Shown: positions 25,570-59,805, counted from the first letter of the stretch. The stretch: 64,000 nucleotides of DNA from Nanobdellota archaeon (GCA_051819805.1 JBNJHD010000001.1:8962-72961), one strand, 5' to 3'. The notes: generated from the letters alone by a model not told the origin. Program-made: numbers and translations.

Positions 25570-25571
25570 AT

Positions 25572-26579: not shown

Positions 26580-26903
26580 ATGACACTCAAGAAGTATATG
26601 AAAAAACACAAGAAAGGATTCAGCATCGCAGCGATACTCACAGGAGTGCTCGCGGGAGTTGCAGCAGCAGTATTTCTGAAGAAACGATACGAACGGATCC
26701 ACGATGAAGAACCGACCTATAAAGGTTCTGCAAAGAAAAACACTTTTTCTAAAAAACAAGCAAGCAAGAACTCTTCGAAAAAGCCGAAGAAAAAATCTAC
26801 AAAGAAAGCAACGAAGAAGGCAACCAAAAAGACTGTGAAGAAAGCAAAGTCTAAGAAAACAGGTTCTGTCAAAAAAAACACAAGCCGGAAAAACAGGAAA
26901 TAA
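26580..26903 (+). CDS. Small membrane-anchored, extremely Lys-rich (histone H1-like tail) protein
   Basis: One TM helix (FSIAAILTGVLAGVAAAVFL) then a K/S/T-rich low-complexity tail (KKPKKKSTKKATKKATKKTVKKAKSKK). Confidence 0.4.
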   Translation: MTLKKYMKKHKKGFSIAAILTGVLAGVAAAVFLKKRYERIHDEEPTYKGSAKKNTFSKKQASKNSSKKPKKKSTKKATKKATKKTVKKAKSKKTGSVKKNTSRKNRK

Positions 26904-26962
26904 TCCTTTTTAAACCACTTCTCGATACTTTTATAATGGATGAGCAGTTATAGATTTCTATC

Positions 26963-28291: not shown

Positions 28292-28308
28292 TTGCAGAGT
28301 GATATCAA

Positions 28309-30162: not shown

Positions 30163-30221
30163 ATATTTTTCCTGACCGATAAGCTTTTTAAAAGCGTAAA
30201 GGTTCTCTCTTTTTCAAAGAC

Positions 30222-30572
30222 GGACCCGTGGCCTAATCTGGATAGGGCAGCAGCCTCCTAAGACAGTGGTCAGGGTGCGGCTGTAGAGCAAGTACAGTTA
30301 ATTTGTCCACTGTTTCGGCGAGAGCTGAAGCTTGGGGGTTCGAAACAGCTGGTTACGCTCAGCTGGCACGCATTAAGGGTTTCGTGCGCGTTGCACACTC
30401 AATCCCTTTGGGTTTATTCCCTTTTAATTGCTGCTTACGCTCTGTTGGCATGCATGTAGGGTTTCGTGCGCGTTGCACACTCAATCCCTTGTTTTTTTCA
30501 TGTCGGCTTTAGTTCAAAGCTGGCTTACTGTGTCAAGCGATGTGACTGCTGACGAAAGTCCCCTCGGGTCCG
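30222..30572 (+). tRNA. Putative tRNA-Arg (anticodon CCU) interrupted by two or three introns, including a ~214-nt insertion in the T-loop; no encoded CCA; followed by a T-run
   Basis: 5' acceptor GGACCCG (30222-28) is perfectly complementary to CGGGTCC (30565-71). D-arm GCCT/AATCTGGATA/GGGC; anticodon stem GCAGC with loop CUCCUA.. T-stem GGGGG + TTCGAA (30334-44) is completed by T + CCCCT (30559-64) only after removing 30345-30558. Exon ttcg / intron cgaa could form the 4-bp core of a BHB-like motif. TTTTTTT follows at 30575. Confidence 0.45.
30376..30490 (+). repeat. Two identical 33-nt direct repeats (AGGGTTTCGTGCGCGTTGCACACTCAATCCCTT) separated by 49 nt, each able to fold as an imperfect hairpin
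   Basis: Exact copies at 30376-30408 and 30458-30490. Ends are inverted (AGGGTTT / AATCCCT) with an inner GTGC..GCAC palindrome. Located inside the putative T-loop intron of the tRNA-Arg locus. Confidence 0.6.
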
Positions 30573-30705
30573 CGTTTTTTTACTTCTTTTGTGTAGTGCG
30601 TATACTTCTTGCTCTTGAAAATTGTCATCCTCTTATCGTCATACTTCGTGAACCAATACTTTTATAAAAGGGTTTAATCCTATCAATTGCAGAGGGTTGA
30701 GTACT

Positions 30706-32499: not shown

Positions 32500-32618
32500 C
32501 GGATAACGGGTTGCTATCTGTCTCCTTCGTATTGTTACTACTACTGTCGTAAACACTAGGTTTATAAATAAAACCTTCTCTGGTTTACATACAGGGTACT
32601 TTCGGAAACAGGGGTGAG

Positions 32619-35600
32619 TTGGTCATACTTAAGCGTACTTTAATATTTTTTATGCTGCTTAGTGTGGTGTTGTCGGGCGTAGCACTGACAATAGCTGCAT
32701 CTAGCGGGCAATCTATCAATCTATCTAGTTCTGGGACTCCTGTTTCTATCCGAATACCATCCCTGACTTCTGAAACCTTAGAACTCACCCTCTCAGGCAA
32801 TGAGTATAGTCCTATCGAGACGAAACGAGACCCTATACGCTACAACGATCCGGTCGGATGGCAGCTCATCCTTTCTAACGGCACGACCAACAAGAGTATT
32901 GACTATACCACACCCGAAATAACTGTCGATGAAAGCATTGATACGACTCCCTCGTCATGGCTTGCGACAATCACATTCTCAACACAAGCATCAACGACGT
33001 ACACTGACCTGCCATACACATTTGAAGCACCGACAACAAGAGATATAGCAACGTCCTCGCTTCTCAGTAAACTGTCAGCAGCAAATGACAGTGTAAGTTT
33101 TATACTGCCACAACTTCATTCTGAACGGACTATCATTATCACAGGAGCACTTGGTAACGGGACGTCACGAACTGCAGTGGCGGAAACTCCTGAAGGGATT
33201 TACACGATTGAGTTGAGCAGCGGTATTCCTGAGGAATTCACTGTGCAAAACGCTTCAATTTCAACCAAGCTTGAAGAACTCAGGACTAACCAGACTCTCA
33301 CTATGCATTTACACGCTCCTGTGGCACTTGATTCAGCAACGACATTCTATATCTGGAACCAAAAACAAAGCGAAAAAATTCCTCTCAGCTATTCTCTCGA
33401 ACATAATGGCACGCTGGCAATCATCAATATACCTCCTTCTCTTCTTGAAATGTTGAGCTTGCCAGAAACATCACAATACTTCTACGGGAATCTCGAACTG
33501 GCAATGGATAATGCTCGGTATTTCACATTCACCACGGATAAAGAATTCTACTTCCCTGAAGAGACAGTGACATTTAACATCCTCCCTGAGAATACGTCAT
33601 CGTTCATCTACGTGACGACTCCTTCTGGAGAACCTGAACTTATTACTGGAACAGAATACACTCCGGAAGTTCCAGGAACCTACACTGTTGATGCCTCGCT
33701 CTATCATGAGAATATCAGTGAAGAACAGGCTCTCACATTTGATGTTCTCAATGCCACTCTTGCAAATCAGACTGAGGATGAGATCGTTCTGGAATTCAAC
33801 AATACCTATGAAGGACAGCAAAAGACTATCAGAGCATCAGTCAAGATTCCTGAACATGCTCGAGACGTTGCCCAACAACTCAATACACTAGAGCAAGAAA
33901 TCAACGTCCTGAAGAAACAAGACGAATTATCAGAGTCATTGAATGCTGTTCAACAGGGATTCAGTGCAATGAGCGCATCAACGAATATGATACAGCAATC
34001 AAATGCTCCTGCTTCTGTGAAAGAACAGATTCTTCAGAAACGCCGGCTTCTCACGCAGAAACGAGAAGAGCTCAAAGAACGAGTCAACAATAGAGTAAAT
34101 GCGACAGTCAATCTCGCTAATTCATCCTCAGACAGGGTCAAATCAATCGCATTCAACAACCTGGAAATCAAGAACGACACGATCGATCTCGGATTCAAAG
34201 AAGATGTCGATATCAACGAAGCGACTTCAAGTTTTGCAGTCGATCCAGAACGAATTAATTTCACGAACGCAACTATCACAGTCAATGCGACAGGAAATTA
34301 TCTATACAAGTGTCGCGATTGGAATTTCAGCGGTCAATACTGTCCGGAACCAGTAACTACCTGTACTGGAGTCAAAGGTGTAAATAGGAGTTGCGAGACC
34401 TATGGCGGTTGGAAGAAACTCAAGAAAGTCACACCAGGACAACTCTACACGATTTCCGTAGTACCGAAAGACCCTGCGTATGCAGAGTATGATGCAACGT
34501 ACACTGCACCTTACTGTAACGTGAGCGAGTCACCATGTATCGCTAACTCGAGTGTGCTCATGTCTTCAGGCACATATACTAACCAAAATGAGCCTAACGA
34601 GCCCAATACAGTTGATGCTTGTACTGATGGTGGAAGCGGTACGTATGAGTCAGATGAGTATGTCCAGAATGTCACGATCACCAGTCTCAATAACAGCAAT
34701 TTCCAGACTGGAGACACAGTTAACGTGTCAGCATGGGTTCATATTTGGGGGACTGCTGATGATGTCGTCAACTTCGTTTACGCAAACGATGCATCAAGCC
34801 CGAGTTGGACAGTCAAGGCAGGAGATGTTCCTCTCGATGGAACCGGCTACCAGCAAGTGAGCACGACATTCACGCTTGATGAAGTGGTGGGAGACCATGT
34901 CATACGAGTGCTCAACGAGTATCAAGGAGCGGCAACGACTACCTGTGCAAGCAACGGATACCATGATAACGATGATGTCGTCTTCAAGGTTGATAGGAAA
35001 TTCAATGTAAGTAATGCCCAATATAATTCGACATTCGGAGCACCATACTGTAGTTACGGGGCAAGTCCATGTATTGCGTATTCAGAACTTCTCAAATCAG
35101 CAGGAACATACACTAATCAGGAAGAGCCGAACTATCCGAATACAATAGATGCATGTAGTGATGGTCATAGCGGTACGTATGAAGGTGATGAGTACGTTCA
35201 GAATATAACAATTGAAAGTCTGAATCATAGTACGCTGCAAGCGGGAGACACTATCAATATCACCGCATGGGTGAATGTTTATGATGCTGCAACTGATGTA
35301 GTGAATTTTGTTTACACGAATGATGCATCATCTCCTTCATGGACGGTGGTTGATGGAGATGTTCCTCTCGGAGGAACCGGCTACCAGCAAGTGAGCACGA
35401 CATTCACGCTTGATGAAGTGGTCGGAGATCATGTCATACGAGTGCTTAACGAGTACAACGGTGCAGCAACAACTACCTGTGCAAGCAACGGGTATCACGA
35501 TAACGATGATGTCGTCTTCAAAGTACAACAGGCTGATACAGCTATCAACTGGCTAAATGAAACTTGGAAGTGGAGAATGCCATTCAACATTTCCAATACA

Positions 35601-38600
35601 GCCGGAGATCTTACTGGTTTCCAAGTTCAAGTCAATCTCACGCCTAGCAACTTTGACTTTGAAAAAGCGAACGCAAACCTGAGCGATCTGCGATTCACGT
35701 ATTACGAACCTGATGCACAGACTGAAATCGAGATCCCTTACTATATAGAATCAAATACAAGTCTCGATTATAGCACAGACGCATACACTGCCAATATATG
35801 GATAAGAACTGATTTGGTCAATGATACGAACACCACACACTATGTCTACTATGGAAATCCTGATGCTCAAAGCGAATCGAATGCAAGCGCGGTCTTTGAT
35901 TATTACAATGGTTTCGAAAGCGAAGTGGGATTCACAGATGGTGATCTCACCCTGACCAGAGATACCAATTCATCAAAGAAAGGAGATTTTGGTGTCACAG
36001 GAAATGGCGGTGGCACTCATACTCAGGCATATCGGAGTGGTGTGAATAGTGGTAGGGATGTGATCTTTGAAGTCTGGACGAAGTCATATGATGATGGGGG
36101 AAGCCAGGATACATCCCTTGCCTCTATCGCATTCGGTCATCCTAATGCAGGCGCAACTACTGATGGTTATCAAGCATTCATCGATGAGAGAGACAACGGT
36201 GAAGCATTCGGTCTCAGAGAAAATTATGGTGTTGGAACTCTTACTGCTTCGGCAACACCATTGACATATTATAATACTTGGTACTTCCAACAAGCGATAT
36301 GGAAATCAAATGGAGAGCTCGTCCACAATCTATATGATGAAGATAAGAATCTTCTTGGTTCAATAACAGCGACAGACAACACCTATACGGATGGAGAGTA
36401 CGGTCTCGGTTTGTGGCAGGCAGCACACTTCGATGAGTACAGGGTGCGAAAATACGCAAATCCTACTCCTGGAATAAGCGGTACTGGTGACGGAGAATTC
36501 GTCGGAGTCATAAACGTCACTTTCGACGAACCTACTGATGGTGATAGTACAGATACGTACAACAGCTTCACGATGAACGGTACTGTCGAATGCATCCGAG
36601 GAAATGATTGCGGTAATATCAGTGTCTGGTACCAATACTACACAACAAGCACGCCAACACAATCAATCACCGAGACCACGACAGCAGACTTCGCAAGCTA
36701 TGAGAGTGAATACAACACGTCACAATCAAACGGCAAACTCTATCTGGAGAACAAGAACTCGGAAACCAGCTGGTGGGATGGTCTCTGGCTGTACAGGCAG
36801 AACTTCACAGTCTACAATCCGAACAGCGATACAATCACTGATTATCAAATCAATCTCCAACTGAACAGTTCAAACACGCAAAGCAACTTCCCATGGAGCA
36901 ACTCAGCAGAATTGCGATTCGTCGTGTATGACAATGATACTGGTGACACCACTCTGGTGGATCACTGGGTTGAATCATGGGATCAAAGCGGTCAGAACGC
37001 AAGCGTCTGGGTTGAGATTCCTGAGTTTGAAGCGCTCAATGATACGATACTGCACATATACTATGGGAACAGCGGAGCGGCAGATATCTCCAACGCTTCA
37101 GCAACAATGCTCTATCATGATGATTTTGAGGATGGAAACGATGATGGGTGGACAGAAGAGACAGGGTCGTGGAGTGTCACAAGCGGTGAATACCAACAGA
37201 CGACAGATATCACTGACTATCTCATCTCATCAGCGGGAAGCAGTTCGTGGACAGATTATACGGTAGAAGCTGATATCAACGTGACAAACGATGGATCGAC
37301 ACGACCATTCGCCGGTATCGTGACACGATTCCAAAATACTGATAATTATTATGTGGCTGTGCTTGATGACTCTACAAACCTTGCAATAAGAAATAGGGTC
37401 GGAGGGGCGTGGGATGTTCAGAACGACTACACGATAAGTTTCGATACTCTTGATTGGACGCATTTACGAGTCGATATCTATGATGATGGAGGACAAGATA
37501 CAGTCAAAGCCAGTGTCAACGGCTATACGCATGCACATAATTTTACCAATTTCAACTCTGGAAAAATTGGTCTTTTCACGCACGGCCACCAACCATACTT
37601 CGATAACGTCATCGTAAGGACATTCGCAGAACAAGAGCCGGTCATCACAGCAGGAACTGAAACAACTTTGGAGAGAGCATCACCGGGAGAATATCTCTCG
37701 GACGTGTTTGATACAGGATCATACGATGCTCAGTTCAAAGGAATAACCTGGAATGAAGAAACAGATGCTGACACGACACTCAACATATACACGAGAACAT
37801 CTCCTGATAATGTATCGTGGTCGAACTGGTTCTTAGAAATATCAGGAAATACTATCAGTTCACCAAAGGATAACAGATACATCCAATACAAGGCTGAGAT
37901 GGGCACGACCGATACTCAAAAGAGTCCCTTGCTTGATGATATCACTATCAATTACACTATTTTAAGCAAGTCATGGAAAAATATTTCTTTATCAGGTCAG
38001 ACCTTCACAACATCAAATCCTTATGAATGTGCTGTTCTCAGTGATAATTGCACACCATCATTAACTGTTCTACCAAAAGAGTTTGGTAATTATTCGCTCA
38101 GGTTCTTGGTTGATAATAATGATTATGATATTATCGATACAACAACTGAACCTCATAATATTACAGTATATCTTCAACCATCCTTTTCCTCGTTCACAGC
38201 AACAGTGAATCCGGTATCTATTAACGATACTACTGAACTCTCAGCAGTACTAGTTGATGGATCTTCCCAATCATTATCAGGATATAATATTACTTTCTAT
38301 GATGAGACACATAATGGTACTGACAGGTATGAAATAGGATCGACACTGACTGATGCTTCAGGAGTGGCAACTATTGATTATCAAGTTCCTATTGATGGAC
38401 AGCTCTCGATTCACACGCTCAACGCAAGCTATGCTGGCGACCTATCTGAGTTCAAGAAAGGAATTGAAGTTACTCGTTCTCTTACAGTCTCTTCAACACC
38501 TAAGTTCAATGCTATTTCAGTCAATCCTGAAAATATCGGTTTCGGAAAGAACCTGACAATCGCAGCCAACATCACAGATGCTGTCGGTCTTTCAACAGTC

Positions 38601-41600
38601 AAGATCAACATCACGGACGAATCAGGAACGACAACACAGTATGACATGGCATTATCAGGACAGTTGTACGAATATACATTCCCTGAAAAATGGGAGACTG
38701 AAGAATATGAGTTCATGATTATAGCAACGAATAATGATGGTATAAGATCAATTTCAGAAACTAGATCATTTGCAGTAGATGTCACTGCAGAATTCGATAT
38801 TGTTACTGAGAAGGATGAATATAAGAATGAAGAACTTGTCAATCTTAAACTAGTGAAAGATGGTTGGTATTATCTTGGATGGACACACCGGACTCCAATC
38901 ACTGTTGTAAGCCAGAACAAACTGAAAGACTTCCAGATATCGTTTGAACTAGATGAAGAGAACTTTCAATTCAATCAGGCTAATGCTGATGGAAGCGATA
39001 TACGGGTAACATATCTCAATAAAACTAGTGGAAACGAGGAAACAATTCCTCATTGGATCGACTCATTCAATAGAACGTCAGAAGAAGCAACTATCTGGGT
39101 AAAAACACCTCTTCTGGATGATGCTATTGATAATGTATTCTACATTTATTACGGAAACGATACTGCGACAACGACAAGCAACGGTACAGATACATTTCTC
39201 TACTTCGAAGACTTCGAAGGAACATTTACCTGGACTGACTATGGTTCAGGAAGCGTTGTGAAAGACTCGACAAGGTCATATGACAACACTTACTCCGGAC
39301 ATAAGATCAACAACAACGATCCTAACGGTGCATACGATGATGTTGGTTTCACGTTCGGACGTGATGTCATCATGGAATTCTGGGTGAATAGGAACGCAGG
39401 ATTTACTGGTGGAAACCAAGATAGGGTTGGTTTCATCGATAATAGCGGTAACGGTTATGGATGGGTATTTATCCATAGTGGTTCTGAAATCGCAGCAGAC
39501 AGGCGTGATTCATATACTGGAAGTAATCTTCCAGGAACAACTGCTACTGATTATACTGACACATGGGTCTTCGGTCGGTTCGTGGTCAAATCGAACGGTG
39601 TCGTAGAAGCATACCGATATGTGAATGACACGTTAGCAGGAAGTATGGCAATCACAGATAATACATACAATAGTTTCACACGAGCATATATCTTTGGTGG
39701 AAACGATTACTGGGTGGATGATATCAGGATCAGGAATTATGATGCAGGAGTCATCGAAAAACAATACAAGATGACAGAACAAGGAATCCATGGACTCCTC
39801 AACAAAGGAGATACTGAATTTGAAGGACAACTAAGAATGCTCGTCCAGGAATGGACAGGATCAAGCTGGCAGAATATCATGCCACCTGTTGTTGAAGATG
39901 AATGGACGAATGTCAGCGGATATGAAGCAATCGAACTTTCAGGTCTTTGGGATGCAAAAGGTGCTTGGAACACTTCAAACCGTGATTCAGGAACATACAG
40001 AGTATATGCTATTATGGAAGATCCTTCCTATAATACGCTATACACTACAGATGGTCAACCGCTTATCGGAACGTACAATTTCACGATCATACAATCATCA
40101 GTAGAGCTGGAAAACCTCACTCACGAGAATGAACATGAAGACACGATCAACGAATACGAAACAGGAGATGTCATCGACTGGATCAACGCGACTGTCAAAG
40201 CGTATGACAACACAGCGTACAATGCCTATGTTAACCTCTCACTCTATGATGATTCTAAACAACCTCTTCCATGGGGGCCTCAAGAAGAGCTCAAGAACTG
40301 TGGAACACTGACTGAAGGAAGCACATGCGAACGACAGTGGACGAATTCCAGCAACGGTTACATCATTCCTCAAGATGCAATTGCAGGAACCTACACCTTC
40401 TACTGGAATGTCAAGTCAGATTCCGATAATGGACCTGTCAACATCAACGACTCAACATCATTCACCATCCACAGTGTCCCATCAACAGTCTCAAGTGCTC
40501 TTGAGAAGATCCGTGTAGAAAAACCTAACTCTACACTCTACAACTTCACGTTCACGAACCCTTGGAGCGAATCGCTCACAAGTACGACTGCGACAATCAA
40601 TTGTCCGACGATGAGCGGCTTTGAGTGCGATTCACTCGTGTCAGGAACAAGAACTGAAAATATAGGTACGGTCACTTCTTCAGACACAGTTACGGTACAG
40701 TTCAATGTCTCGGCTAACGAAAGCGTACCATCCGACAACTATAACATCTCAATAGAACTCAATTACACTAACCCTGGTGCTGAAGATAAAAGCTGGTCAG
40801 GACTCGGTGAGCAGATTGTGGAAGTGAGAATCGCAGGTATACTCGAGATTACAGACTTTTACCATCCTAATAATATTACACGAGGTATCACTTATGACTT
40901 TGATTCCCATATGAACAATTCAGCAGATAATACTGCCAATAATGCATGGTTGAACTACACCTTGCCTGCATCATGGCAACTCATCTCAGGAACCTTAAGC
41001 ACAACTTTCGGTAGTCTTGCACCTGGTGAGATCGGTTGGAACAATATCTCTGCACAACCAGAAGCAGATGCACCTCTTGGACCACGTCAAGTGCGTCTCG
41101 ATTCCGGAGCCGATGATGGTAGGTATGATTTCAAGGTATATTCGGTTGATGTGTACGCTCAAACAAATATCAATGCTTCAAAAGATCGTTATATCGTCAA
41201 CAGAGGAGAGAATGTTAATCTTTCAGCAACATTATATTATGACAACTCATCAACTATCAACGGTCAAGAAATCGAATTCGTCGACACGCGAACAGCGACA
41301 ACAATCGGAACTGCAACAACTAACACGAGTGGAGTAGCGACCATCCCTTATTATATCAACTCAACATCTCCGCTTGGAACTCACACAATAAATGTGACTT
41401 TTGATGGTAGCGTGACTGACTATCTCCGTCCAAGCTATAACACCACAGATATCAATATTCATGAAGTACCTGAAATATCGAATATAGTGATTTCTCCAAA
41501 TGTGACCAGCTATGGACAGGACATATGGATTAACGCGACGATAACAGATACTGATGATGTCGATAGCGCATGGTATGAGATCACATTCCCTAACGGCACT

Positions 41601-44600: not shown

Positions 44601-47600
44601 ACTGTTGATGGCTGTGCTGATGGTGGAAGTGGAGGATATGAAAGTGATGAATACGTCCAGAACATCACTATAGAAAGCTTGAACCATACGCTCATCCAAC
44701 GAGGAGACACGGTCAATGTCACAGCAACTGTATATGTTTATGATACCAATTCCGATTTTGTCAACTTCGTCTATGCGAATAACGCGTCAAGTCCAAGCTG
44801 GACAGTCATGGCGGGAGATGTGGCGCTGCCTGGAACCGGCTATCAGCAAGTGAGCACGACATTCAAGCTTGATGATGTATCAGGAGACCATGTCATTCGA
44901 GTCCTCAACGAGTACAATGGAGCAGCAACGACTACCTGTGCAAGCAACGGCTATCACGATAACGATGATGTGGTTTTTACCGTAGCAGAAGAGAATATTC
45001 CATTGCGATGTAAAGTGGTCGATGCGACAGACAGCGATAGTCCTATAGAAAACTATAACGTATCATTCTATAACAATGACGGACTGCTTGACTGGAAACT
45101 GACAGATTCACAAGGATACGCATATTACAGGTATTATGATCAGTCTCCAGGACCTGAAACACTCTCCTGTAAGATAAGAAATGATACAGTCAATTATTAC
45201 AAGACAGACAGCAATAACGAAAGTTCAATCAATATCAACACACTAGAAGATATTCCGCCGACATACTCAAGCGTTTCAGGACCTACGCCGGTACACAAGG
45301 GAGATGTCATTACGCTCTCGACATTATGGCAGGATAACTATCAACTAGACACTGCAACACTCCAGATAAACACGAGCGGAGCATACGTCGATGAAGATAC
45401 TATTGCTCTCTCTGGAAATGAGAGCTGGGCGAACTTCAGCTATACAATCTCTAACTCATTGCTTCCAGGAACCTTCGGGTGGAGACAGATCGCAAACGAC
45501 ACGTCAAAGAATACGAACCAGACTCCTGATCAGACATTAGAAGTGTGGGGATACTCGCGAGTCGATTCTTCATCAATCTCGCCTTCTAGCATCCAGGAGA
45601 CGAACAGCACGACGATGACATGTACAGTGCAAGATGCAGGTGACAACAGTGGACTTCAGGACTATGCAGTCTACTTCTGGTACAAGAACTCAAGTGAAAG
45701 TACATACACGGCTCTCGGTAGCAACACTACAGATGCAAGTGGACAGGCGAGCTACTCGTTTGTCGTTAATACAGCAGCAACATATGATGTGAAATGTAAT
45801 ATCACTGACAATGCAACGCAACAATATAATGTATCAAGTCCTGATAATAGGATTGAAGAACTGAATGTTATCGTAGGTGATGATACCCGACCGCCACAAA
45901 TCATCGGAGAAAACTATACAGTCACACCATCTCTGGTTCACAGAGGAGGCTGCATCGATATTTCAGGATTATGGGATGAAAATATCAGCGAAGCGTACGT
46001 CAGATACAACCAGACATCAACTGAATATACGCAAGTGAACATCTCAAGCCCGTACACTGGCAACTGGACGAACACGACCATCTGCACGAACGAGACATGG
46101 GATCTTGATGACTATACGTTCAAACTATTTGCAAAAGATCTAGAAGGAAATCGTAATGACACGCTCTCCTACAAGACAGTCGCAGTCAAAGGGCTGGCTC
46201 AACTTGAATGGGATGCGCCGACAGGAGACCAGAACAGGACTACGCTGAATGTCAGCTGTAAGGTCATCGATAACGAGACCGCTAACCCTATATCCGGATA
46301 TCCAGTAACGTTCTACGATGGGGATAAAGGTATTTCAATAGGAAATGATGATACGAACGCTTCAGGAATCGCACAGATACAATACGATTACTCGGGAGCG
46401 CTTGTCGGACCTGATGAACTCTCATGTACATTCAGCGATGAACCATCGCTCAACTACGAAACGACAGGATCAACAACTGTCTCAGAGACAATTGACTTCT
46501 ACGGATACCTCAACGCGACAATAGCAACCCCTGTTTCCGACCAGATCCTCCACAGAGGAACTGGAGAGTCGCTAGAGGTAAACGTCGTCGACGAGTTCGG
46601 TAACACGCCGCTTGACCAAAACGGCAACACAGCAGCGCTGTCAGCGATCTGGAGAAACGCTTCTTCAGACCAGATAGCGACAGGTACGACCACTACCTGG
46701 AATGTTCCATCAAGTTACCAGCTCGGAAGCGATACTCTAGAAGTCGATGTCTCTGAGACTTATTATTACCCTGACAACGATAGCCAGAACGTAGAGATAT
46801 GGAGCTATGCGCAAGTGGACTTGACAAGCCCGACTGCAGACACATACGGTGCTGGAGTCAATCTTGATATCAACTGTACCGTGACTGACGAAGCAAGCAC
46901 TGATTCTATTTCCGGCTACGATGTCAACTTTTATGATAATGGGGCCTTGCTCGGCACAGGGACAAGTGATGCCGCTGGAGAAGCGAGCTTGACCGTCAGC
47001 ACGGACACGCTCGGAGATGGCAGTCATGACTTGAGCTGTAACATCAGCGACAATCCTATAAACTATTATGAGGCAGGAGCGAACAAGGAAGATCTCGTCA
47101 GCATAACAGTAGACGGCTCGACACCGGAAATCTCATACGCTGCCAATACGGATACGAACGGAACGTATGACAAGACATGGATACTCGTCAATGTCACGTC
47201 AGTAGAAAGCAATCCTGACACTGCACTGCTCTACTGGAACGGAGTCCCTGAAGAATTCACTTACACGGACGGAACGAACTACTGGGTCAACAAGTCAGTA
47301 CTCTCAGACGGCAATTATGAGTTCTATGCGTACATCAACGATACAGCCGGCAATGAGAACCAGACCGGACTACGGAACGTCACGCTCGATACGACAGCTC
47401 CAGTAGTCACGCTCGACAATCCGCTCAACACGACATACAACACGTCATCATTTGATCTCAATTATACAGTCGTCGAAGAGAATCCTGATACGTGCTGGTA
47501 CAAGATAGACAGCAATCCGAACCAGACGATAGCAGGCTGTTCCAACATCACGATAGGATCGCTCGGCGAGGGAACACATACAGTCGTTATAGCAGCTAGC

Positions 47601-50600
47601 GATACGGTCGGACATGTTGACGAGGACAATGTCACATTCACGATAGACCAGACACTACCACAAGTCACAATAGATAACCCAGTGCTCGGTGTTGAATACA
47701 CTGATAATGATGTCGATCTCAATTACACAGTCAGTGATGACAGGAATGTGGATGAATGCTGGTATAAGCTCAATGGTGGAACCAAAGTCGCCATGCCAAG
47801 CTGCCAGAACACGACACTTACCAGTCTATCAAACGACAACCACACGATAGAAGTCTTCGCTAACGATACGGCAGGAAACATCAACTCATCATCACTCTGG
47901 TTTGAAGTGAACTATAGCGTGCTCACAGCAACACCACTTTATCCCGATAATGATACGATCATTGCCAGTCAGACGATAAATGTCAATGTCACGACGAACA
48001 AGCAGGCGAACGAGTGTAACTACTCTCTTGACGGTGGGGCTTATACTCCGATGACAAACTATACGTTGCTGGACTGGTCAGCATCAGCAGGTCCGCTCAC
48101 TGAATCAACACATAACGTCAGATTTACCTGTACAGATGGTATCAACACGTCAACGACAGATTTGGTCTATTTCACGATCGACGTGACAGGACCGACGATC
48201 ACCTATGAACTACCTACACCGGGAGATGGTGATGGTCGAGGAGTAGATTGGGCGGTTGTCAACGTCACGCTTGACGAACCGGGAGATACAGCGCTGCTCG
48301 AATGGGAGAACAGCACAGCTATCACGAACATCACGATGAACCAGCACAATAGCACCAGCTACTGGTACAACATGTCAGGACTGGCAGATGCGACGTACAA
48401 CTACACAGTCTACGCCAATGACACGATCGGCAACATGAACAACGCTTCAACACGAGAAGTGATCATATCAACAACAGCACCAGTCATACAACTGGATAGT
48501 CCGACAGCACAGGAATACACGACTAGTGTTATCGATCTGAATGTGAGTTCGAACATGGAAATTGATGAATGGTGGTATGAGTTCAATGGACGTAATTTCT
48601 CACTGATACCTAACACCACTATCACTGCAGAAATGAACGAGAATAAAATTACTGTCTATGGTAATGATACTTTCGGAAATATAGGAAATGAAAGCGTCAC
48701 GTTCATTGTGAATGCGACATCCTGGACGGATGACTTCACTGGACTCACAGGAATTTCCAGTAGCAGTAATGTAAAAACCGGAGGGGCTGCTCAGATCGAT
48801 CCGTGCTGGCCACTCTATCACGAAGAGGACAGTGACGACTATAACAGGGATACGTGCTGGCATTATCGAAAACCAGTAACAATAAGCGCGTCATCGCAGC
48901 TTAAAGACTACCAGATGCTACTCAACATCGACTTGAGCACTGAATACTCGCAAGGAAAACTACAGGATAACTGTGAAGACCTCAGATTAAGCTATTACAA
49001 CAGCACGAGCGGCGATGACCAGAAGATCAGTCACTGGATAGAAGATTGCAGCGACAAGAGCAACATCAGCGTGTGGGTCAAATCACCGCAGATAGACACT
49101 AGCTCGACAACACTGCATGCCTATTATGGAAATGACCGGGCAGGAGATAGTTCCAACGGAACGGCAGTCTTTGAGATGTTTGATAACTTCAACACAGTCT
49201 CATCGACGGACTGGGGAAGCAATGCAGCTAACTGGAACACTGAAAAAGGAGTGGCGTATCCGACTGTATCAGGATCAAGCTCCCGACTCACTCACGACTA
49301 TTCATTCGGCAGCACTTACGCAACAGAACTCTATATGAAAGCGAACGCGACAAGCGGTTCAGCAGGTTACTACGGACTTGGTAACGGTGCAGGAACAAAG
49401 TATTTACGACTCTATCTTGAACCGTCAAATAATAGGGTAAGTCTCTACAATGGAGCGAATAATTACTACTCTCTCGATTCAGGATCGTACCAGAAATACA
49501 CTATCATCTCAGACTATACGAATGATGAATACAAACTGCTCATCAACAATTCACAAACAGCACTTGATCTCTCATCAGCAGCATCATCAAGTACATCGTC
49601 GCCCACGTTCTATTCATACTATACTAACGGTCTTTATCTTGATCACATAGCGATAAGGAAGTATGCAGGTAATACTCCTTCCATGGATGCTATTGGTGCT
49701 GAACAGCAACCGACAGTCAATGGATCAGTGGAAAGCATTGTCGTCAAACCTCTCGAACTCTATAGTTGGGATACGTTTTCAGCAACAGTAAATACTCCTG
49801 GAACGACCAGTCTCACCTTCCACCTACTTAATGAATCGGGAAGCGATCTCTGTGGTGACATCTCTGAAGCACAGATAACAAGCGGTTATGAAGTCTGTAG
49901 CGCTGCAAACTCATATGATAGTATTGTTCTTCAGGCAAACTTGACGACAGCTTCATCATCCGAAACACCGCAGATAGACTCATGGACCATCAACTGGAGC
50001 GAAACAATAACGACACAACCTGATCTCATCATCAATTCGATAAACTTCACGCCAGAAAGGTTCATCGAGAACAAGAACGTGACTGTCAATATCAACGTGT
50101 CAAACAACGGAAGCGCGGACGCAGGAGAATCAACAGTTAGGCTCAATGTCTTGCTCTGGAAAGGGAGCAGGATTCTCAAGAAAACATACGAAGAGAATGT
50201 GACTTTACCAGTAGGAGCGTCGACAATCGTCAGCTTCAACTGGACAGCAGCCATAGGAACGCACATCTTTGACGCGTATGCCGATGCAGATAATGTTATT
50301 CTCGAAAGCAATGAGACAAACAACAACCTCACAGTCAACGGTTCCACGTCAGCATGGCAGACGTTCTACGGGAACTACAGCTATACCTACTTCCTAGGAG
50401 ATGCTGATAATAGGAGTTACATGAACTGGTCAAACTTCGTCGCAAAAGGAAACATATACTATTCAGATGTGGATGCCAGCTACTATCCATTCGACCTGCA
50501 ACCGCTTGACGGAACGAACGACTTCACAGAAGCGGATACAGCACTTGGCATGACATACTTCAACGATTCCATCAGTAAAGAATTCGACAGCAATAATGAT

Positions 50601-50888
50601 GGAACAGCTGACCAGACAAGCACGTTCAACATAGGAGGGACACAGGTCGCGAATGTACCGGTCATCAACTCGACCGATGCAGGAACATTCATCACAGGAA
50701 TCCTCTGGGACAGCGCTGATGGCGGAAGCGAATACGACGGAAGCCAGGATCTGGTCATCATCACGAAACTCAACGAATCGACAGCAGGAAAATACGGTAC
50801 GTATGATTTCGAAGCGAGAGTGCCGGTACTGCTCAGGAACCAGACCGGAAATATACATCAACTGGAGCGATATGATGAATTGCAATAA
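32619..50888 (+). CDS. Giant (6,089 aa) secreted multidomain surface glycoprotein/adhesin-like protein
   Basis: Uninterrupted 18.27-kb ORF with SD (GGGGTGAG) plus TTG start and signal peptide. Contains 5 DUF2341-like modules each followed by LamG-like regions, three ~180-aa Cys-containing modules, Ig-like repeats and a C-terminal CARDB-like domain. Hundreds of NxS/T sequons. Confidence 0.8.
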   Translation: MVILKRTLIFFMLLSVVLSGVALTIAASSGQSINLSSSGTPVSIRIPSLTSETLELTLSGNEYSPIETKRDPIRYNDPVGWQLILSNGTTNKSIDYTTPEITVDESIDTTPSSWLATITFSTQASTTYTDLPYTFEAPTTRDIATSSLLSKLSAANDSVSFILPQLHSERTIIITGALGNGTSRTAVAETPEGIYTIELSSGIPEEFTVQNASISTKLEELRTNQTLTMHLHAPVALDSATTFYIWNQKQSEKIPLSYSLEHNGTLAIINIPPSLLEMLSLPETSQYFYGNLELAMDNARYFTFTTDKEFYFPEETVTFNILPENTSSFIYVTTPSGEPELITGTEYTPEVPGTYTVDASLYHENISEEQALTFDVLNATLANQTEDEIVLEFNNTYEGQQKTIRASVKIPEHARDVAQQLNTLEQEINVLKKQDELSESLNAVQQGFSAMSASTNMIQQSNAPASVKEQILQKRRLLTQKREELKERVNNRVNATVNLANSSSDRVKSIAFNNLEIKNDTIDLGFKEDVDINEATSSFAVDPERINFTNATITVNATGNYLYKCRDWNFSGQYCPEPVTTCTGVKGVNRSCETYGGWKKLKKVTPGQLYTISVVPKDPAYAEYDATYTAPYCNVSESPCIANSSVLMSSGTYTNQNEPNEPNTVDACTDGGSGTYESDEYVQNVTITSLNNSNFQTGDTVNVSAWVHIWGTADDVVNFVYANDASSPSWTVKAGDVPLDGTGYQQVSTTFTLDEVVGDHVIRVLNEYQGAATTTCASNGYHDNDDVVFKVDRKFNVSNAQYNSTFGAPYCSYGASPCIAYSELLKSAGTYTNQEEPNYPNTIDACSDGHSGTYEGDEYVQNITIESLNHSTLQAGDTINITAWVNVYDAATDVVNFVYTNDASSPSWTVVDGDVPLGGTGYQQVSTTFTLDEVVGDHVIRVLNEYNGAATTTCASNGYHDNDDVVFKVQQADTAINWLNETWKWRMPFNISNTAGDLTGFQVQVNLTPSNFDFEKANANLSDLRFTYYEPDAQTEIEIPYYIESNTSLDYSTDAYTANIWIRTDLVNDTNTTHYVYYGNPDAQSESNASAVFDYYNGFESEVGFTDGDLTLTRDTNSSKKGDFGVTGNGGGTHTQAYRSGVNSGRDVIFEVWTKSYDDGGSQDTSLASIAFGHPNAGATTDGYQAFIDERDNGEAFGLRENYGVGTLTASATPLTYYNTWYFQQAIWKSNGELVHNLYDEDKNLLGSITATDNTYTDGEYGLGLWQAAHFDEYRVRKYANPTPGISGTGDGEFVGVINVTFDEPTDGDSTDTYNSFTMNGTVECIRGNDCGNISVWYQYYTTSTPTQSITETTTADFASYESEYNTSQSNGKLYLENKNSETSWWDGLWLYRQNFTVYNPNSDTITDYQINLQLNSSNTQSNFPWSNSAELRFVVYDNDTGDTTLVDHWVESWDQSGQNASVWVEIPEFEALNDTILHIYYGNSGAADISNASATMLYHDDFEDGNDDGWTEETGSWSVTSGEYQQTTDITDYLISSAGSSSWTDYTVEADINVTNDGSTRPFAGIVTRFQNTDNYYVAVLDDSTNLAIRNRVGGAWDVQNDYTISFDTLDWTHLRVDIYDDGGQDTVKASVNGYTHAHNFTNFNSGKIGLFTHGHQPYFDNVIVRTFAEQEPVITAGTETTLERASPGEYLSDVFDTGSYDAQFKGITWNEETDADTTLNIYTRTSPDNVSWSNWFLEISGNTISSPKDNRYIQYKAEMGTTDTQKSPLLDDITINYTILSKSWKNISLSGQTFTTSNPYECAVLSDNCTPSLTVLPKEFGNYSLRFLVDNNDYDIIDTTTEPHNITVYLQPSFSSFTATVNPVSINDTTELSAVLVDGSSQSLSGYNITFYDETHNGTDRYEIGSTLTDASGVATIDYQVPIDGQLSIHTLNASYAGDLSEFKKGIEVTRSLTVSSTPKFNAISVNPENIGFGKNLTIAANITDAVGLSTVKINITDESGTTTQYDMALSGQLYEYTFPEKWETEEYEFMIIATNNDGIRSISETRSFAVDVTAEFDIVTEKDEYKNEELVNLKLVKDGWYYLGWTHRTPITVVSQNKLKDFQISFELDEENFQFNQANADGSDIRVTYLNKTSGNEETIPHWIDSFNRTSEEATIWVKTPLLDDAIDNVFYIYYGNDTATTTSNGTDTFLYFEDFEGTFTWTDYGSGSVVKDSTRSYDNTYSGHKINNNDPNGAYDDVGFTFGRDVIMEFWVNRNAGFTGGNQDRVGFIDNSGNGYGWVFIHSGSEIAADRRDSYTGSNLPGTTATDYTDTWVFGRFVVKSNGVVEAYRYVNDTLAGSMAITDNTYNSFTRAYIFGGNDYWVDDIRIRNYDAGVIEKQYKMTEQGIHGLLNKGDTEFEGQLRMLVQEWTGSSWQNIMPPVVEDEWTNVSGYEAIELSGLWDAKGAWNTSNRDSGTYRVYAIMEDPSYNTLYTTDGQPLIGTYNFTIIQSSVELENLTHENEHEDTINEYETGDVIDWINATVKAYDNTAYNAYVNLSLYDDSKQPLPWGPQEELKNCGTLTEGSTCERQWTNSSNGYIIPQDAIAGTYTFYWNVKSDSDNGPVNINDSTSFTIHSVPSTVSSALEKIRVEKPNSTLYNFTFTNPWSESLTSTTATINCPTMSGFECDSLVSGTRTENIGTVTSSDTVTVQFNVSANESVPSDNYNISIELNYTNPGAEDKSWSGLGEQIVEVRIAGILEITDFYHPNNITRGITYDFDSHMNNSADNTANNAWLNYTLPASWQLISGTLSTTFGSLAPGEIGWNNISAQPEADAPLGPRQVRLDSGADDGRYDFKVYSVDVYAQTNINASKDRYIVNRGENVNLSATLYYDNSSTINGQEIEFVDTRTATTIGTATTNTSGVATIPYYINSTSPLGTHTINVTFDGSVTDYLRPSYNTTDINIHEVPEISNIVISPNVTSYGQDIWINATITDTDDVDSAWYEITFPNGTAKNYSMNNIPPSDYYSIFNDTWQNGTYSIIIYANDTTSARSQSEELFIIDNADLTLGLLTDYPSYGQNSDVNLLPTTATTWWNTNYGYKRVRNITNTAGNLTEYQFFIEENLSQAYADDLINDDCKSVRFTYYNSTSRKEERIPYYVDYCNLTVEDNAGFWVKVPFLENDTDTRISMYYGNTQADSESNLTEVFTYDTRQTIGYVVSDLTATNGVTLTGITAEGSNVQVGGSVYTIGELQTRTPGTLEVYDPIKATNPVQVEGNGAYDGVVVPISWASTEFLLAGMRGTEDFCMLSPWGDASVDIYDGSSGTPEWSGTINNTGNCINNDITERNTGRITSDKPILLFKSTSDSNDAYPVYPATDEDLYLASLSNQGYVAAGTTSTTVDFYGSSGGTGSETIQNVDANAATYLTTGDSGSGDAVRFSADNPVGAIQQADHDGTESSVAVPRKEMSPEFAAAHDAQYIAVVSGDQDVSCSIYDTNGLVATNTTTGSIANRVYKTCFGCGNDNIFVNGPWKLECDKPVWAYYEENTDDAETNMISYKQMRTKVYPEPVVSESEEQQVGSHIFNDFEDQASGYLYLTIQTNNSGSWQHVDTVVDDISTSTKRDIPLVSGLDLSSIWNATPWNTANYDAGTYKVYGELRAPDGSVLENTNGSDINGYWTFTIEEPDLQLDLDDIRIYDLSNTDNSNWHYYTNDLEGSGLNTTYTLGKDKIYRVEVDILNSGSSTWDINETDVDYNYLNSVWPVNETDDIWYSDKTSISDRRNDATKTTGSFDGNVSWDTLADDGSVSSSGTATFFFIVNTSTEETRQVNFNIEHSTFIKSDYSTWEIIDLDEEIPYIINDNYNITTLDIIRGNDLTLFGQWNEEIDMANATYSTSGPSTYVTTTDTNPGGNWTNFTITSYPTWYLGDHDAKLTAKDKSGNVNDTLAYIPFTIWGLAQIESMTSDNEPATEQENAVYDTAYTTPYCNSTRSPCVANSSLLMSSNSYTDQNEPNQPNTVDGCADGGSGGYESDEYVQNITIESLNHTLIQRGDTVNVTATVYVYDTNSDFVNFVYANNASSPSWTVMAGDVALPGTGYQQVSTTFKLDDVSGDHVIRVLNEYNGAATTTCASNGYHDNDDVVFTVAEENIPLRCKVVDATDSDSPIENYNVSFYNNDGLLDWKLTDSQGYAYYRYYDQSPGPETLSCKIRNDTVNYYKTDSNNESSININTLEDIPPTYSSVSGPTPVHKGDVITLSTLWQDNYQLDTATLQINTSGAYVDEDTIALSGNESWANFSYTISNSLLPGTFGWRQIANDTSKNTNQTPDQTLEVWGYSRVDSSSISPSSIQETNSTTMTCTVQDAGDNSGLQDYAVYFWYKNSSESTYTALGSNTTDASGQASYSFVVNTAATYDVKCNITDNATQQYNVSSPDNRIEELNVIVGDDTRPPQIIGENYTVTPSLVHRGGCIDISGLWDENISEAYVRYNQTSTEYTQVNISSPYTGNWTNTTICTNETWDLDDYTFKLFAKDLEGNRNDTLSYKTVAVKGLAQLEWDAPTGDQNRTTLNVSCKVIDNETANPISGYPVTFYDGDKGISIGNDDTNASGIAQIQYDYSGALVGPDELSCTFSDEPSLNYETTGSTTVSETIDFYGYLNATIATPVSDQILHRGTGESLEVNVVDEFGNTPLDQNGNTAALSAIWRNASSDQIATGTTTTWNVPSSYQLGSDTLEVDVSETYYYPDNDSQNVEIWSYAQVDLTSPTADTYGAGVNLDINCTVTDEASTDSISGYDVNFYDNGALLGTGTSDAAGEASLTVSTDTLGDGSHDLSCNISDNPINYYEAGANKEDLVSITVDGSTPEISYAANTDTNGTYDKTWILVNVTSVESNPDTALLYWNGVPEEFTYTDGTNYWVNKSVLSDGNYEFYAYINDTAGNENQTGLRNVTLDTTAPVVTLDNPLNTTYNTSSFDLNYTVVEENPDTCWYKIDSNPNQTIAGCSNITIGSLGEGTHTVVIAASDTVGHVDEDNVTFTIDQTLPQVTIDNPVLGVEYTDNDVDLNYTVSDDRNVDECWYKLNGGTKVAMPSCQNTTLTSLSNDNHTIEVFANDTAGNINSSSLWFEVNYSVLTATPLYPDNDTIIASQTINVNVTTNKQANECNYSLDGGAYTPMTNYTLLDWSASAGPLTESTHNVRFTCTDGINTSTTDLVYFTIDVTGPTITYELPTPGDGDGRGVDWAVVNVTLDEPGDTALLEWENSTAITNITMNQHNSTSYWYNMSGLADATYNYTVYANDTIGNMNNASTREVIISTTAPVIQLDSPTAQEYTTSVIDLNVSSNMEIDEWWYEFNGRNFSLIPNTTITAEMNENKITVYGNDTFGNIGNESVTFIVNATSWTDDFTGLTGISSSSNVKTGGAAQIDPCWPLYHEEDSDDYNRDTCWHYRKPVTISASSQLKDYQMLLNIDLSTEYSQGKLQDNCEDLRLSYYNSTSGDDQKISHWIEDCSDKSNISVWVKSPQIDTSSTTLHAYYGNDRAGDSSNGTAVFEMFDNFNTVSSTDWGSNAANWNTEKGVAYPTVSGSSSRLTHDYSFGSTYATELYMKANATSGSAGYYGLGNGAGTKYLRLYLEPSNNRVSLYNGANNYYSLDSGSYQKYTIISDYTNDEYKLLINNSQTALDLSSAASSSTSSPTFYSYYTNGLYLDHIAIRKYAGNTPSMDAIGAEQQPTVNGSVESIVVKPLELYSWDTFSATVNTPGTTSLTFHLLNESGSDLCGDISEAQITSGYEVCSAANSYDSIVLQANLTTASSSETPQIDSWTINWSETITTQPDLIINSINFTPERFIENKNVTVNINVSNNGSADAGESTVRLNVLLWKGSRILKKTYEENVTLPVGASTIVSFNWTAAIGTHIFDAYADADNVILESNETNNNLTVNGSTSAWQTFYGNYSYTYFLGDADNRSYMNWSNFVAKGNIYYSDVDASYYPFDLQPLDGTNDFTEADTALGMTYFNDSISKEFDSNNDGTADQTSTFNIGGTQVANVPVINSTDAGTFITGILWDSADGGSEYDGSQDLVIITKLNESTAGKYGTYDFEARVPVLLRNQTGNIHQLERYDELQ
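34498..35570 (+). repeat. Tandem intragenic duplication (2 x ~540 bp) encoding a Cys-containing ~180-aa module; the 3' ~150 bp of each copy is >90% identical at nucleotide level
   Basis: GGAACCGGCTACCAGCAAGTGAGCACGACATTCACGCTTGATGAAGTGG...GATAACGATGATGTCGTCTTCAA recurs at 34839-34990 and 35378-35530. Protein copies YTAPYCNVSESPCIANS...VFKV and APYCSYGASPCIAYS...VFKV. Confidence 0.8.
44488..44990 (+). repeat. Third dispersed copy of the same ~180-aa module / 150-bp near-identical nucleotide core, ~9.5 kb downstream in the same gene
   Basis: GGAACCGGCTATCAGCAAGTGAGCACGACATTCAAGCTTGATGA...GATAACGATGATGTGGTTTTTAC at 44833-44985. Protein YTTPYCNSTRSPCVANS...VVFTV. Confidence 0.75.
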
Positions 50889-50981
50889 TCAGATAAAAAC
50901 AAGCTCATCAAGAACAGTTAGCTTTATAAATGAACTTCGCTACTTTATAAATGCGGCGTTGTGTGAACAAGAGGTGTTGTT

Positions 50982-59761: not shown

Positions 59762-59805
59762 TACTATACATTCATTACTAAAGGCAAAAAATAAGAGGTG
59801 GTCAT

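Follow-up and report, generated by a model that had tools for sequence, protein, structure and literature searches.

A 6,089-residue modular DUF2341 protein with an export signal encoded in a Nanobdellota genome

An intact 18.3-kb reading frame with an export signal

This work concerns a giant gene of a Nanobdellota archaeon and the protein that it encodes. The gene lies in a 64,000-nt stretch of DNA (GCA_051819805.1, JBNJHD010000001.1:8962-72961), which was analysed as a whole and is called the window here, with positions counted from its first letter. On the plus strand, 32619..50888 is an uninterrupted open reading frame (ORF) of 18.3 kb, with 6,089 codons and a TTG start, as had been described in an earlier note written by a model from the sequence. 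The encoded giant protein is a chain of about fifty beta-rich modules, lectin-like and immunoglobulin (Ig)-like, and its collinearity with relatives and its conserved termini place it in a woesearchaeal family of giant DUF2341 proteins.

The gene is real and intact. Given the base composition of the region, a run of 6,089 codons would escape a stop by chance with a probability of about 1e-158, and the other five frames of 32619-50888 hold 217-552 stops. Tandem Repeats Finder reported no tandem DNA repeats inside the gene, and its sole dispersed DNA repeat, made up of three cysteine-containing (Cys) modules, shows 68-80% nucleotide identity with a longest identical run of 50 nt, so a repeat collapse or a chimera is very unlikely. 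Cys module 3 is not a chimeric copy either, since it is only 73% identical in nucleotides to Cys module 1. The earlier note had named a concatenation of unrelated genes or a repeat collapse as what could overturn its prediction, and neither was seen. Independent homologues jointly cover the whole protein except Cys module 3, which removes the objection of concatenation: aa 1-1099 are covered by the orthologue on L001, a 'Nanobdellota archaeon' metagenome-assembled genome (MAG) contig from a scan of GTDB species representatives, aa 976-3940 and 4125-5855 by P0005 (MCF7798375.1, 7,549 aa, 'DUF2341 domain-containing protein [Candidatus Woesearchaeota archaeon]'), and aa 5787-6088 by P0006, which is encoded on a 1.07-Mb contig.

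The TTG start is preceded by a TATA-like box and a Shine-Dalgarno (SD)-like sequence (Table 1). In the L001 orthologue, a similar TATA box (TTTATAAAT) is kept 5' of the gene, GGGGTGA stands directly before a GTG start, and the N-termini of both proteins align from residue 1; because of this conserved arrangement and alignment, we accept the TTG start. The claim that it lies behind a strong SD stands as far as the presence of the SD-like GGGGTGA goes, but the spacing of 1 nt is shorter than canonical. Likewise, it was an overstatement to count the ORF among the largest possible in archaea, as a homologue reaches 7,549 aa and archaeal proteins of 9,409 aa (PMC10266531) and of more than 10,000 aa (10.1101/2023.11.21.568195) have been reported. 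The giant protein is large but not extreme for archaea.

The N-terminal hydrophobic segment is kept in L001 and in most of the giant homologues, and in the 6,089 aa no membrane segment was found beyond aa 1-30, with no Kyte-Doolittle window above 1.6 elsewhere. The last 40 residues are polar, and a C-terminal sorting signal, be it of the archaeosortase/PGF-CTERM type or a transmembrane (TM) anchor, was rejected because there is no C-terminal hydrophobic segment. A signal peptide combined with the lack of a C-terminal anchor is what the earlier note had read here, and its description of a heavily sequon-decorated protein agrees with the 223 N-x-S/T sequons observed, against 111 expected from the protein's own composition (2.0-fold). 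The sequon density is 3.66 per 100 aa, compared with 0-1.8 in the non-secreted neighbours, most of which are below 0.8. The giant protein gave no match in the NCBIfam scan, and no enzyme or ATPase family was detected in it with Pfam and NCBIfam, scans that support the view of a modular, all-beta-looking protein with no recognisable catalytic domain.

Modules along the giant protein

The module map (Table 1) was built from Pfam, NCBIfam, self-comparison (self-BLAST) and iteration of hidden Markov models (HMM). Pfam DUF2341 (PF10102; gathering threshold 23.4 bits) matches four stretches in aa 1-3200 (187.4 bits, E 5.6e-56) and two stretches in aa 2901-6089 (78.7 bits, E 4.7e-22). The stretches in these two scanned parts correspond to five domains, in all of which YYGN is invariant. 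According to motif and self-comparison, the domains start at aa 983, ~1385, 2083/2088, ~3077 and 5411/5414 (nt 35565, ~36771, 38865/38880, ~41847 and 48849/48858), and the five copies of the earlier note are therefore recovered by Pfam, motif and self-comparison alike. Its three ~180-aa Cys modules, its run of Ig-like repeats at 47.1-48.7 kb and its CARDB-like region at ~50.03-50.35 kb were found as well, the last as a full Pfam match (PF07705; gathering threshold 22.7 bits).

Table 1. Features of the giant gene, its product and the adjacent exported-protein genes (positions in the window)
Feature	Position	Strand	Remarks
TATA-like box TTTATAAATA	32561..32570	+	about 50 nt 5' of the start codon; read from the sequence; putative promoter element
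SD-like GGGGTGA	32611..32617	+	ends 1 nt before TTG; spacing shorter than canonical
Giant ORF product	32619..50888	+	6,089 aa; 671 kDa unmodified, pI 4.1, T+S+N 30%
Signal peptide or signal anchor, aa 1-29	32619..32705	+	MVILKR + 21 hydrophobic residues + AASSG; only Kyte-Doolittle TM-like segment
N-terminal domain, aa ~30-240	32706..33338	+	common to distant giant homologues; no Pfam match
Lineage-specific block, aa 241-621	33339..34481	+	beta-rich region; helical/charged aa ~430-520; CxC module aa 535-621
Cys module 1, aa 622-793	34482..34997	+	4 invariant Cys, EPNxPNT, DDxDD
Cys module 2, aa 800-971	35016..35531	+	self-comparison, DNA repeat
Cassette 1	35565..36488	+	DUF2341 aa 983-1100 + ~185-aa domain aa 1105-1290, ending FDEYRVRKYA
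Cassette 2	36771..37643	+	DUF2341 aa 1385-1504 + DUF1080/3keto-disac_hyd aa 1505-1675, concanavalin-/CBM66-like
Ig-like domain pair before cassette 3, aa 1876-2076	38244..38846	+	duplicated before cassette 4
Cassette 3	38865..39773	+	DUF2341 aa 2083-2200 + domain aa 2206-2385, homologous to that of cassette 1
NEW3/CARDB-like (aa ~2755-2830) + Ig-like (aa 2873-3067)	40881..41819	+	Pfam, HMM iteration
Cassette 4	41847..43283	+	DUF2341 aa 3077-3190 + ~360-aa postD4 aa 3195-3555
Beta-rich modules, aa 3556-3938	43284..44432	+	self-comparison
Cys module 3, aa 3953-4122	44475..44984	+	lineage-specific insertion
Big-like/Ig-like array, aa 4129-4830	45003..47108	+	weak Pfam Big_1, Big_3_5, bMG3; internal repeats
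Six to seven ~90-aa Ig-like repeats, aa 4831-5364	47109..48710	+	several with a Cys pair; weak Big_13 match
Cassette 5	48849..49778	+	DUF2341 aa 5411-5525 + ~190-aa domain aa 5530-5720, ending LDHIAIRKYA
CARDB, aa ~5800-5905	50016..50333	+	Pfam 52.1 bits, E 8e-14, profile positions 1-100 of 101
Conserved C-terminal domain, aa 5906-6089	50334..50885	+	ends YDFEARVPVLLRN; no TM segment
Upstream neighbour, 600-aa secreted protein	30697..32499	+	C-terminal membrane segment, Lys/Ser-rich tail; no Pfam match
Four more exported-protein genes, 382/553/601/862 aa	50982..58250	+	translations; 862-aa protein with C-terminal membrane segment

Each DUF2341 domain is followed by a further domain, with which it forms a cassette. 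The earlier note had placed a concanavalin- or LamG-like region behind every copy, and this holds for cassette 2, but no such match was found in cassettes 1, 3, 4 and 5. In cassette 2, aa 1505-1671 match 3keto-disac_hyd/DUF1080 (PF06439) at 31.6 bits and E 2.2e-7 (gathering threshold 26.8 bits), and a phmmer comparison of the trailing domain with the levanase CBM66 structures 4b1l/4azz gave E 1.7e-4. These matches of aa 1505-1675 therefore imply a concanavalin-like beta-sandwich, for which sugar binding is a prediction. The trailing domains of cassettes 1 and 3 are homologous to each other (hhalign probability 100%). With the Laminin_G_3 domains of a family of ~845-aa proteins (see below) as the LamG_3 reference, hhalign found no significant similarity to LamG_3 or DUF1080 in the trailing domains of cassettes 1, 3 and 5 (probability at most 3%), and a LamG assignment for every cassette was rejected for this reason. 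The trailing regions of cassettes 1, 3 and 4 have no Pfam match even at E<=1, and that of cassette 5 has only a sub-threshold one to RicinB_lectin_2 (E 0.007). A shared terminal motif, [FVL]D.[IVY].[IV]R.[YF], is the only hint of a jelly-roll fold.

The N-terminal domain is recognisable by BLASTP in distant giants, residues 2-214 of P0005 aligning with aa 23-237 at 27% identity and residues 11-153 of P0006 with aa 35-178 at 35%. The full block of aa 241-621 aligns only with L001 among the homologues compared, and the wider region of aa ~240-975, with the helical stretch, the CxC module and Cys modules 1-2, is common only to the giant protein and L001. The CxC module itself (motif YKCRDWNF...C...PGQLY...P.DPAYAE) is also present in the protein P0001, and L002 has three copies of it in an unrelated ORF exceeding 6,000 aa. 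The latter ORF, at about 410-18430 of L002 (Nanoarchaeota single-amplified genome AM-311-M09, JBHPGL010000019.1), fills nearly all of an 18.7-kb contig and has FN3-like, MAM/LamG-like and Gly-rich beta-helix-like regions; what it shares with the giant protein is only this module, there as KC.DWNF..C...PGQ.Y...DPGFGE.

In the central part, self-BLAST aligns aa 1914-2076 with aa 2904-3067, aa 3540-3669 are a copy of aa 2369-2498, and aa 3788-3898 recur at 4165-4277 and 4374-4490. Within aa ~2755-3067, the Pfam matches to NPCBM_assoc (E 4e-5), Big_3_5 (E 1.8e-5) and MG2 are all below or near the cut-offs. The stretch best conserved in homologues is aa 3556-3938, with 44-49% identity. It is followed by Cys module 3, which is absent at this position from P0004-P0007, P0016 and P0020 and from the locus L004, the alignments jumping from about aa 3940 to about aa 4125. 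The three Cys modules are pairwise 68-76% identical in protein and 68-80% in DNA.

Three conserved domain families of the giant protein, namely the Cys module, the postD4 domain that ends cassette 4 and the C-terminal domain, are missing from Pfam and the PDB. Pfam scans of all the members of their alignments gave scattered chance matches only, and profiles of the three, together with one of DUF2341 plus LamG, found nothing significant among the PDB sequences. A structure model of DUF2341 #4 with postD4 (AlphaFold2, 7 sequences) has a beta-sandwich with a predicted local distance difference test (pLDDT) score of 80-89 for DUF2341 and of less than 50 for postD4, and the Cys module, modelled from a 4-sequence alignment, reached a pLDDT of 44. 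A Foldseek search of the PDB gave no match at E<=1e-3. Word-index searches returned just one protein with the Cys module and two with postD4, a rarity that the exhaustive HMMER search described below proved to be false. The Cys module (~175 aa) is in fact a widespread domain, counted 62 times in 30 of the proteins retrieved, and it also occurs in GC-rich bacterial proteins, in up to 5 copies (P0057, P0122 and P0078 are among the carriers), whose source names include 'subtilisin family serine protease' and 'choice-of-anchor B domain-containing protein'. Of the best 148 newly listed matches, 74 contain postD4 (nt 42201-43283), with 95 instances in all; it is also the C-terminal domain of the ~845-aa family (P0058, P0056, P0044 and about 25 further cluster representatives). 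The order in these proteins is a short N-terminus of 2-4 residues ('MSGF') with a hydrophobic segment, Laminin_G_3, DUF2341 and postD4. They may be described as smaller, putatively membrane- or pilus-linked proteins carrying the same DUF2341-postD4 cassette, and their N-terminus looks pilin- or archaellin-like, though unconfirmed. Their cassette corresponds to aa 3077-3555 of the giant protein at 33-45% identity; they differ from it in that they have only one cassette, with a bona fide Laminin_G_3 and the N-terminal hydrophobic segment before it.

Relatives and genomic neighbourhood

An exhaustive HMMER search with aa 3195-4125 against 1.84 billion cluster representatives returned 1,258 proteins at E<=1e-3, of which 273 have E<=1e-30. 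Among the best 148 newly listed matches, to which the size and postD4 counts refer, 31 have at least 4,000 aa and 18 at least 5,000 aa. The earlier note could not map the architecture to a characterised protein. It does map, over most of its length, to a collinear family of 4,000-7,549-aa giants in Woesearchaeota/Nanobdellota, which are already in public databases and of which no member is functionally characterised. The expectation of a small-genome archaeal lineage is supported too, as the nearest loci belong to Nanobdellota/Woesearchaeota (DPANN).

Collinear BLASTP chains with P0004-P0007, P0016 and P0020 cover 3,730-4,916 of the 6,089 aa. The longest, with P0005, runs through aa 23-237, 976-3940 and 4125-5855 (4,916 aa in total), with 41-49% identity in three long segments. 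The L001 orthologue is collinear over aa 1-1099 with 46% identity, and its fragment is also in the databases as a partial DUF2341 domain-containing protein (P0012, MGM5480554.1). A scan of metagenomes gave four further loci with about 44-45% identity, one of which, L004, has a collinear open frame of at least 4,234 aa. P0005 and MGM5480554.1 represent the giant woesearchaeal proteins in which DUF2341 cassettes, postD4, Ig arrays and CARDB plus C-terminal domain are arranged as in the giant protein, and which have the same N-terminal domain. In 22 homologues the C-terminus aligns with that of the giant protein, with CARDB and a ~185-aa domain ending in YDYE[IV]RVP..L[KR]; in other relatives, L004 included, another domain ('...MANAS') stands at the C-terminus. 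Relatives also vary in how many cassettes and Ig domains they have, and particular to this member are the N-terminal block that it shares with L001 and the inserted Cys module 3.

On two related contigs, L003 (ERZ25039514 contig_47108) and L010 (ERZ25042269 ctg7724l), giant or LamG-DUF2341 genes are split into many short called genes. Further breakage is seen on these contigs, with PGK in four pieces and P0001 ending in an out-of-frame tail, which speaks for indel errors in the long-read assemblies and against true pseudogenes. P0001 and P0003 lie on long-read contigs whose genes are fragmented by frameshifts, and their surroundings gave no informative gene context.

The neighbours of the giant gene in the window are archaeal housekeeping genes, for LeuRS, ribosomal proteins S13 and S4, RpoD, PGK, CDC48, deoxyhypusine synthase, agmatinase, GatD and GatE; a search for exact copies of this GatE sequence gave no match. 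Positions 60-8150 of L001 are syntenic with 23567-32499 of the window, and encode deoxyhypusine synthase, a pyridoxal phosphate-dependent decarboxylase, agmatinase, GatD, GatE and a 560-aa secreted protein, followed by an open frame that the end of the contig cuts off after at least 1,239 aa. The giant DUF2341 relative on L001 has the same flanking genes. Five housekeeping proteins are 71-92% identical in the window and L001, whereas the 600-aa secreted protein upstream of the giant gene is 48% and the giant protein 46% identical. It follows that evolution is far more rapid in the surface genes than in the genes beside them, as diversifying pressure on surface proteins would lead one to expect. 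The adjacency conserved in this one relative suggests that the 600-aa neighbour may be functionally linked to the giant protein.

From 30697 to 58250, six consecutive exported-protein genes on the same strand (600, 6,089, 382, 553, 601 and 862 aa) form an island of ~27 kb, in which two proteins have C-terminal membrane anchors and two have a very high sequon density (5.8 per 100 aa in the 382-aa and 4.2 in the 862-aa protein). In this island, Pfam families above threshold are DUF2341, CARDB and 3keto-disac_hyd in the giant protein and none in its five neighbours; the four downstream proteins have only a weak match to NPCBM_assoc. In L004, the region downstream of the giant gene encodes a weak match to the 862-aa protein (24% over 262 aa). 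The spacer of 94 nt after the giant gene contains two TTTATAAAT TATA-like boxes at 50922-50960. The 382-aa gene is probably transcribed from a promoter of its own and not together with the giant gene. Directly downstream of the cluster, 58730-63887 encodes CheB, CheA and a methyl-accepting chemotaxis protein of the Cache/HAMP type. With Nanobdellota/Woesearchaeota as the nearest relatives of this genome, the presence of a chemotaxis system is unusual, and these genes suggest a motile rather than a permanently attached lifestyle.

Candidate function and competing explanations

Overall, it is rather probable that the giant protein is a tether or adhesin of the woesearchaeal (Nanobdellota, DPANN) cell, one that is exported, probably carries N-glycans and binds glycans multivalently. 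Its domain content, its phyletic distribution and its fast divergence are consistent with attachment to a host or a substrate. For these reasons we favour what the earlier note had put forward, a candidate for host-cell or substrate attachment, although as a statement of function that wording went too far. LamG-, CARDB- and Ig-rich proteins and other giant surface proteins of DPANN archaea are generally read as host-attachment factors (PMC10266531, PMC5498576, PMC7414124), and giant DUF2341 proteins have been noted in Patescibacteria as well (PMC11809585). Laminin_G_3 dominates archaeal proteins of more than 5,000 aa, the function of which was described as 'not understood' (PMC11573180).

In such a tether, the signal peptide or signal anchor at the N-terminus would direct export through Sec, and the protein would probably be N-glycosylated at many of its 223 sequons. 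It would fold into a chain of roughly fifty beta-sandwich modules, for which, at ~4 nm per Ig-like domain, an extended length in the order of 150-250 nm can be estimated, comparable to the diameter of a cell. The five cassettes of DUF2341 plus effector and the three Cys modules could serve as several heads that bind glycans or glycoproteins with low affinity, the putative effectors being one concanavalin/CBM66-like DUF1080 domain, two copies of the shared ~185-aa domain, one postD4 and one ~190-aa domain. The partner surface might be a host S-layer, an envelope or an exopolymer. The family-wide conserved termini (the N-terminal domain, and CARDB with the ~185-aa end domain) would supply invariant functions. 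The likeliest of these would be retention on the envelope of the producer, through an uncleaved N-terminal anchor, non-covalent docking of the C-terminus, or both, and the docking could possibly involve the membrane-anchored 600-aa or 862-aa neighbours. Binding specificity would depend on the variable middle and the lineage-specific insertions, which would evolve quickly. Gain and loss of modules between orthologues is observed, with the insertion of Cys module 3 and the alternative C-terminal domains.

Long chains of Ig-like spacers that project ligand-binding modules from the cell surface are known from giant bacterial adhesins such as SiiE, LapA and MpIBP, to which the giant protein can be likened. 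Unlike these, it lacks an RTX or type I secretion signal and near-identical tandem repeats, and would use Sec rather than type I secretion. The CBM66 of the Bacillus subtilis levanase SacC (PDB 4B1L/4AZZ), from a family that includes a fructan-binding module, is matched by aa 1505-1675 at the level of sequence, and the CBM66-like module is here embedded in a non-enzymatic giant, unlike in the levanase.

Several observations weigh against a role as tether or adhesin. There is no recognised C-terminal cell-wall or membrane anchor, and the protein could be released. A lectin-type family can be assigned to one of the five post-DUF2341 domains, and the Cys module occurs also in bacterial subtilisin-family proteases. 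PostD4, the Cys module and the C-terminal domain, which have no known relatives and poor AlphaFold2 models, might conceal an enzymatic activity. Finally, with chemotaxis genes nearby, an obligately attached lifestyle is not a given.

The giant protein could instead be a component of the cell's own envelope or coat, forming a hydrated protective or structural layer (halomucin-like or S-layer-associated), or a scaffold that captures environmental polysaccharides for feeding. Halomucin of Haloquadratum is a glycosylated giant extracellular archaeal protein, which the giant protein would resemble in this. In favour of a coat or scaffold, the giant protein is very acidic (pI 4.1), rich in T, S and N, dense in sequons and without a dedicated anchor. 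It is clustered with other secreted sequon-rich proteins, including the mucin-like acidic protein of 382 aa, and its CBM66-like domain is of a kind found on fructan-degrading enzymes. However, it has no low-complexity mucin-type repeats and no tandem DNA repeats, but distinct folded modules in a conserved order, and no glycoside hydrolase or lyase was detected in the giant protein or in the neighbours scanned. Moreover, a divergence far above that of the housekeeping neighbours and the turnover of modules fit the recognition of a partner better than a bulk structural role, so a coat or scaffold is possible but unlikely.

Returning to the tether or adhesin, a more specific proposal can be made from the conserved ends and the co-conserved membrane-anchored neighbour of 600 aa. 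These might constitute a dedicated docking system that mounts a glycoprotein filament of ~200 nm as the main host-contact organelle of this woesearchaeal lineage, which is large and has hardly been brought into culture. The Cys module, postD4 and the C-terminal domain would then be new binding or catalytic heads, whose gain and loss (for instance of the third Cys module) would track host switching. As a whole, we regard this proposal as doubtful.

A further alternative is an adhesin displayed on, or handed to, a type IV pilus (T4P)-like filament, for attachment or DNA uptake. DUF2341 proteins encoded in methanococcal T4P loci are predicted pilus-tip adhesins, and one of them is required for transformation in M. 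maripaludis (PMC4858521, PMC10133366). The giant protein shares DUF2341 with these predicted adhesins (arCOG03508), for one of which, M. maripaludis MMJJ_08210, a function in surface appendages has genetic evidence, and the DUF2341-postD4 cassette recurs in the ~845-aa proteins, whose 'MSGF' and hydrophobic stretch resemble the N-terminus of pilins or archaellins. The methanococcal proteins, however, are much smaller and lie inside pilus loci, whereas the giant protein has five DUF2341 copies, and among the ORFs of at least 150 aa, which were those scanned for families in the 64-kb window, there is no pilin, PilB/TadC-type or prepilin-peptidase gene. A class III signal typically has a [KR]-[GAS] motif immediately before the hydrophobic segment. 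The N-terminus MVILKR-TLIFFML does not have this cleavage motif, and a subunit of 671 kDa is hard to reconcile with incorporation into a pilus. The giant protein is not demonstrably pilus-associated, and we consider a pilus adhesin quite improbable.

SPEARE-type giants would form a membrane-embedded conduit with a VirB4/TraG-like ATPase, injecting effectors into a host. Such proteins of nanohaloarchaea (SVXNc_0300, 9,409 aa; BNXNv_0298, 8,880 aa) carry membrane segments at the C-terminus together with a VirB4/TraG-like ATPase, and the next gene encodes a further ATPase of this type (PMC10266531). The giant protein is of a similar size class and has in common with them the DPANN origin, the Sec signal, an enormous acidic ectodomain with Ig-like and lectin-like domains and the presumed role in host interaction, but the comparison with SPEARE made in the earlier note fails on the defining parts. 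There are no C-terminal membrane segments and no membrane segment besides the N-terminal one; no VirB4/TraG ATPase and, in Pfam and NCBIfam, no ATPase, P-loop or cytoplasmic domain; and no adjacent ATPase gene, the downstream gene encoding a secreted acidic protein without a Pfam match. The homologues retrieved are DUF2341 proteins of Woesearchaeota, and no sequence relationship to the nanohaloarchaeal giants was detected in the searches run. The conserved C-terminus of the family argues against the loss of a C-terminal part with membrane segments and ATPase. We therefore reject a membership in SPEARE, on the lack of an ATPase and of a C-terminal TM segment, as extremely improbable.

Equally remote is an artefact, whether from wrong concatenation in the assembly, repeat collapse or decay into a pseudogene, since although giant repetitive genes are often misassembled and the long-read contigs L003 and L010 show frameshift-broken genes, repeat collapse and chimeric assembly are rejected by the stop counts (none in 18.3 kb, against 217-552 in other frames), by the repeat analysis (no tandem repeats, the only dispersed one being 68-80% identical) and by collinear independent homologues of everything except the inserted Cys module 3, in addition to the conserved synteny with L001.

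Few DPANN archaea are as widespread as Woesearchaeales and their relatives, whose host-interaction machinery is uncharacterised. In a lineage of small genomes, about 18 kb is devoted to this one gene, and invariant ends with a rapidly changing middle are the pattern expected of a primary determinant of contact or specificity. This is no new kind of system, as the literature already recognises giant lectin- and Ig-rich surface proteins in DPANN archaea. The giant protein makes visible three conserved domain families without an entry in Pfam or the PDB. Its modules are delimited for expression, namely the five DUF2341 cassettes, the CBM66-like domain, postD4, the Cys module and the C-terminal domain.

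Elsewhere in the window, at 3057-3178, a tRNA unreported by ARAGORN was found by Rfam (39.7 bits), and its length of 122 nt indicates that it presumably contains an intron.

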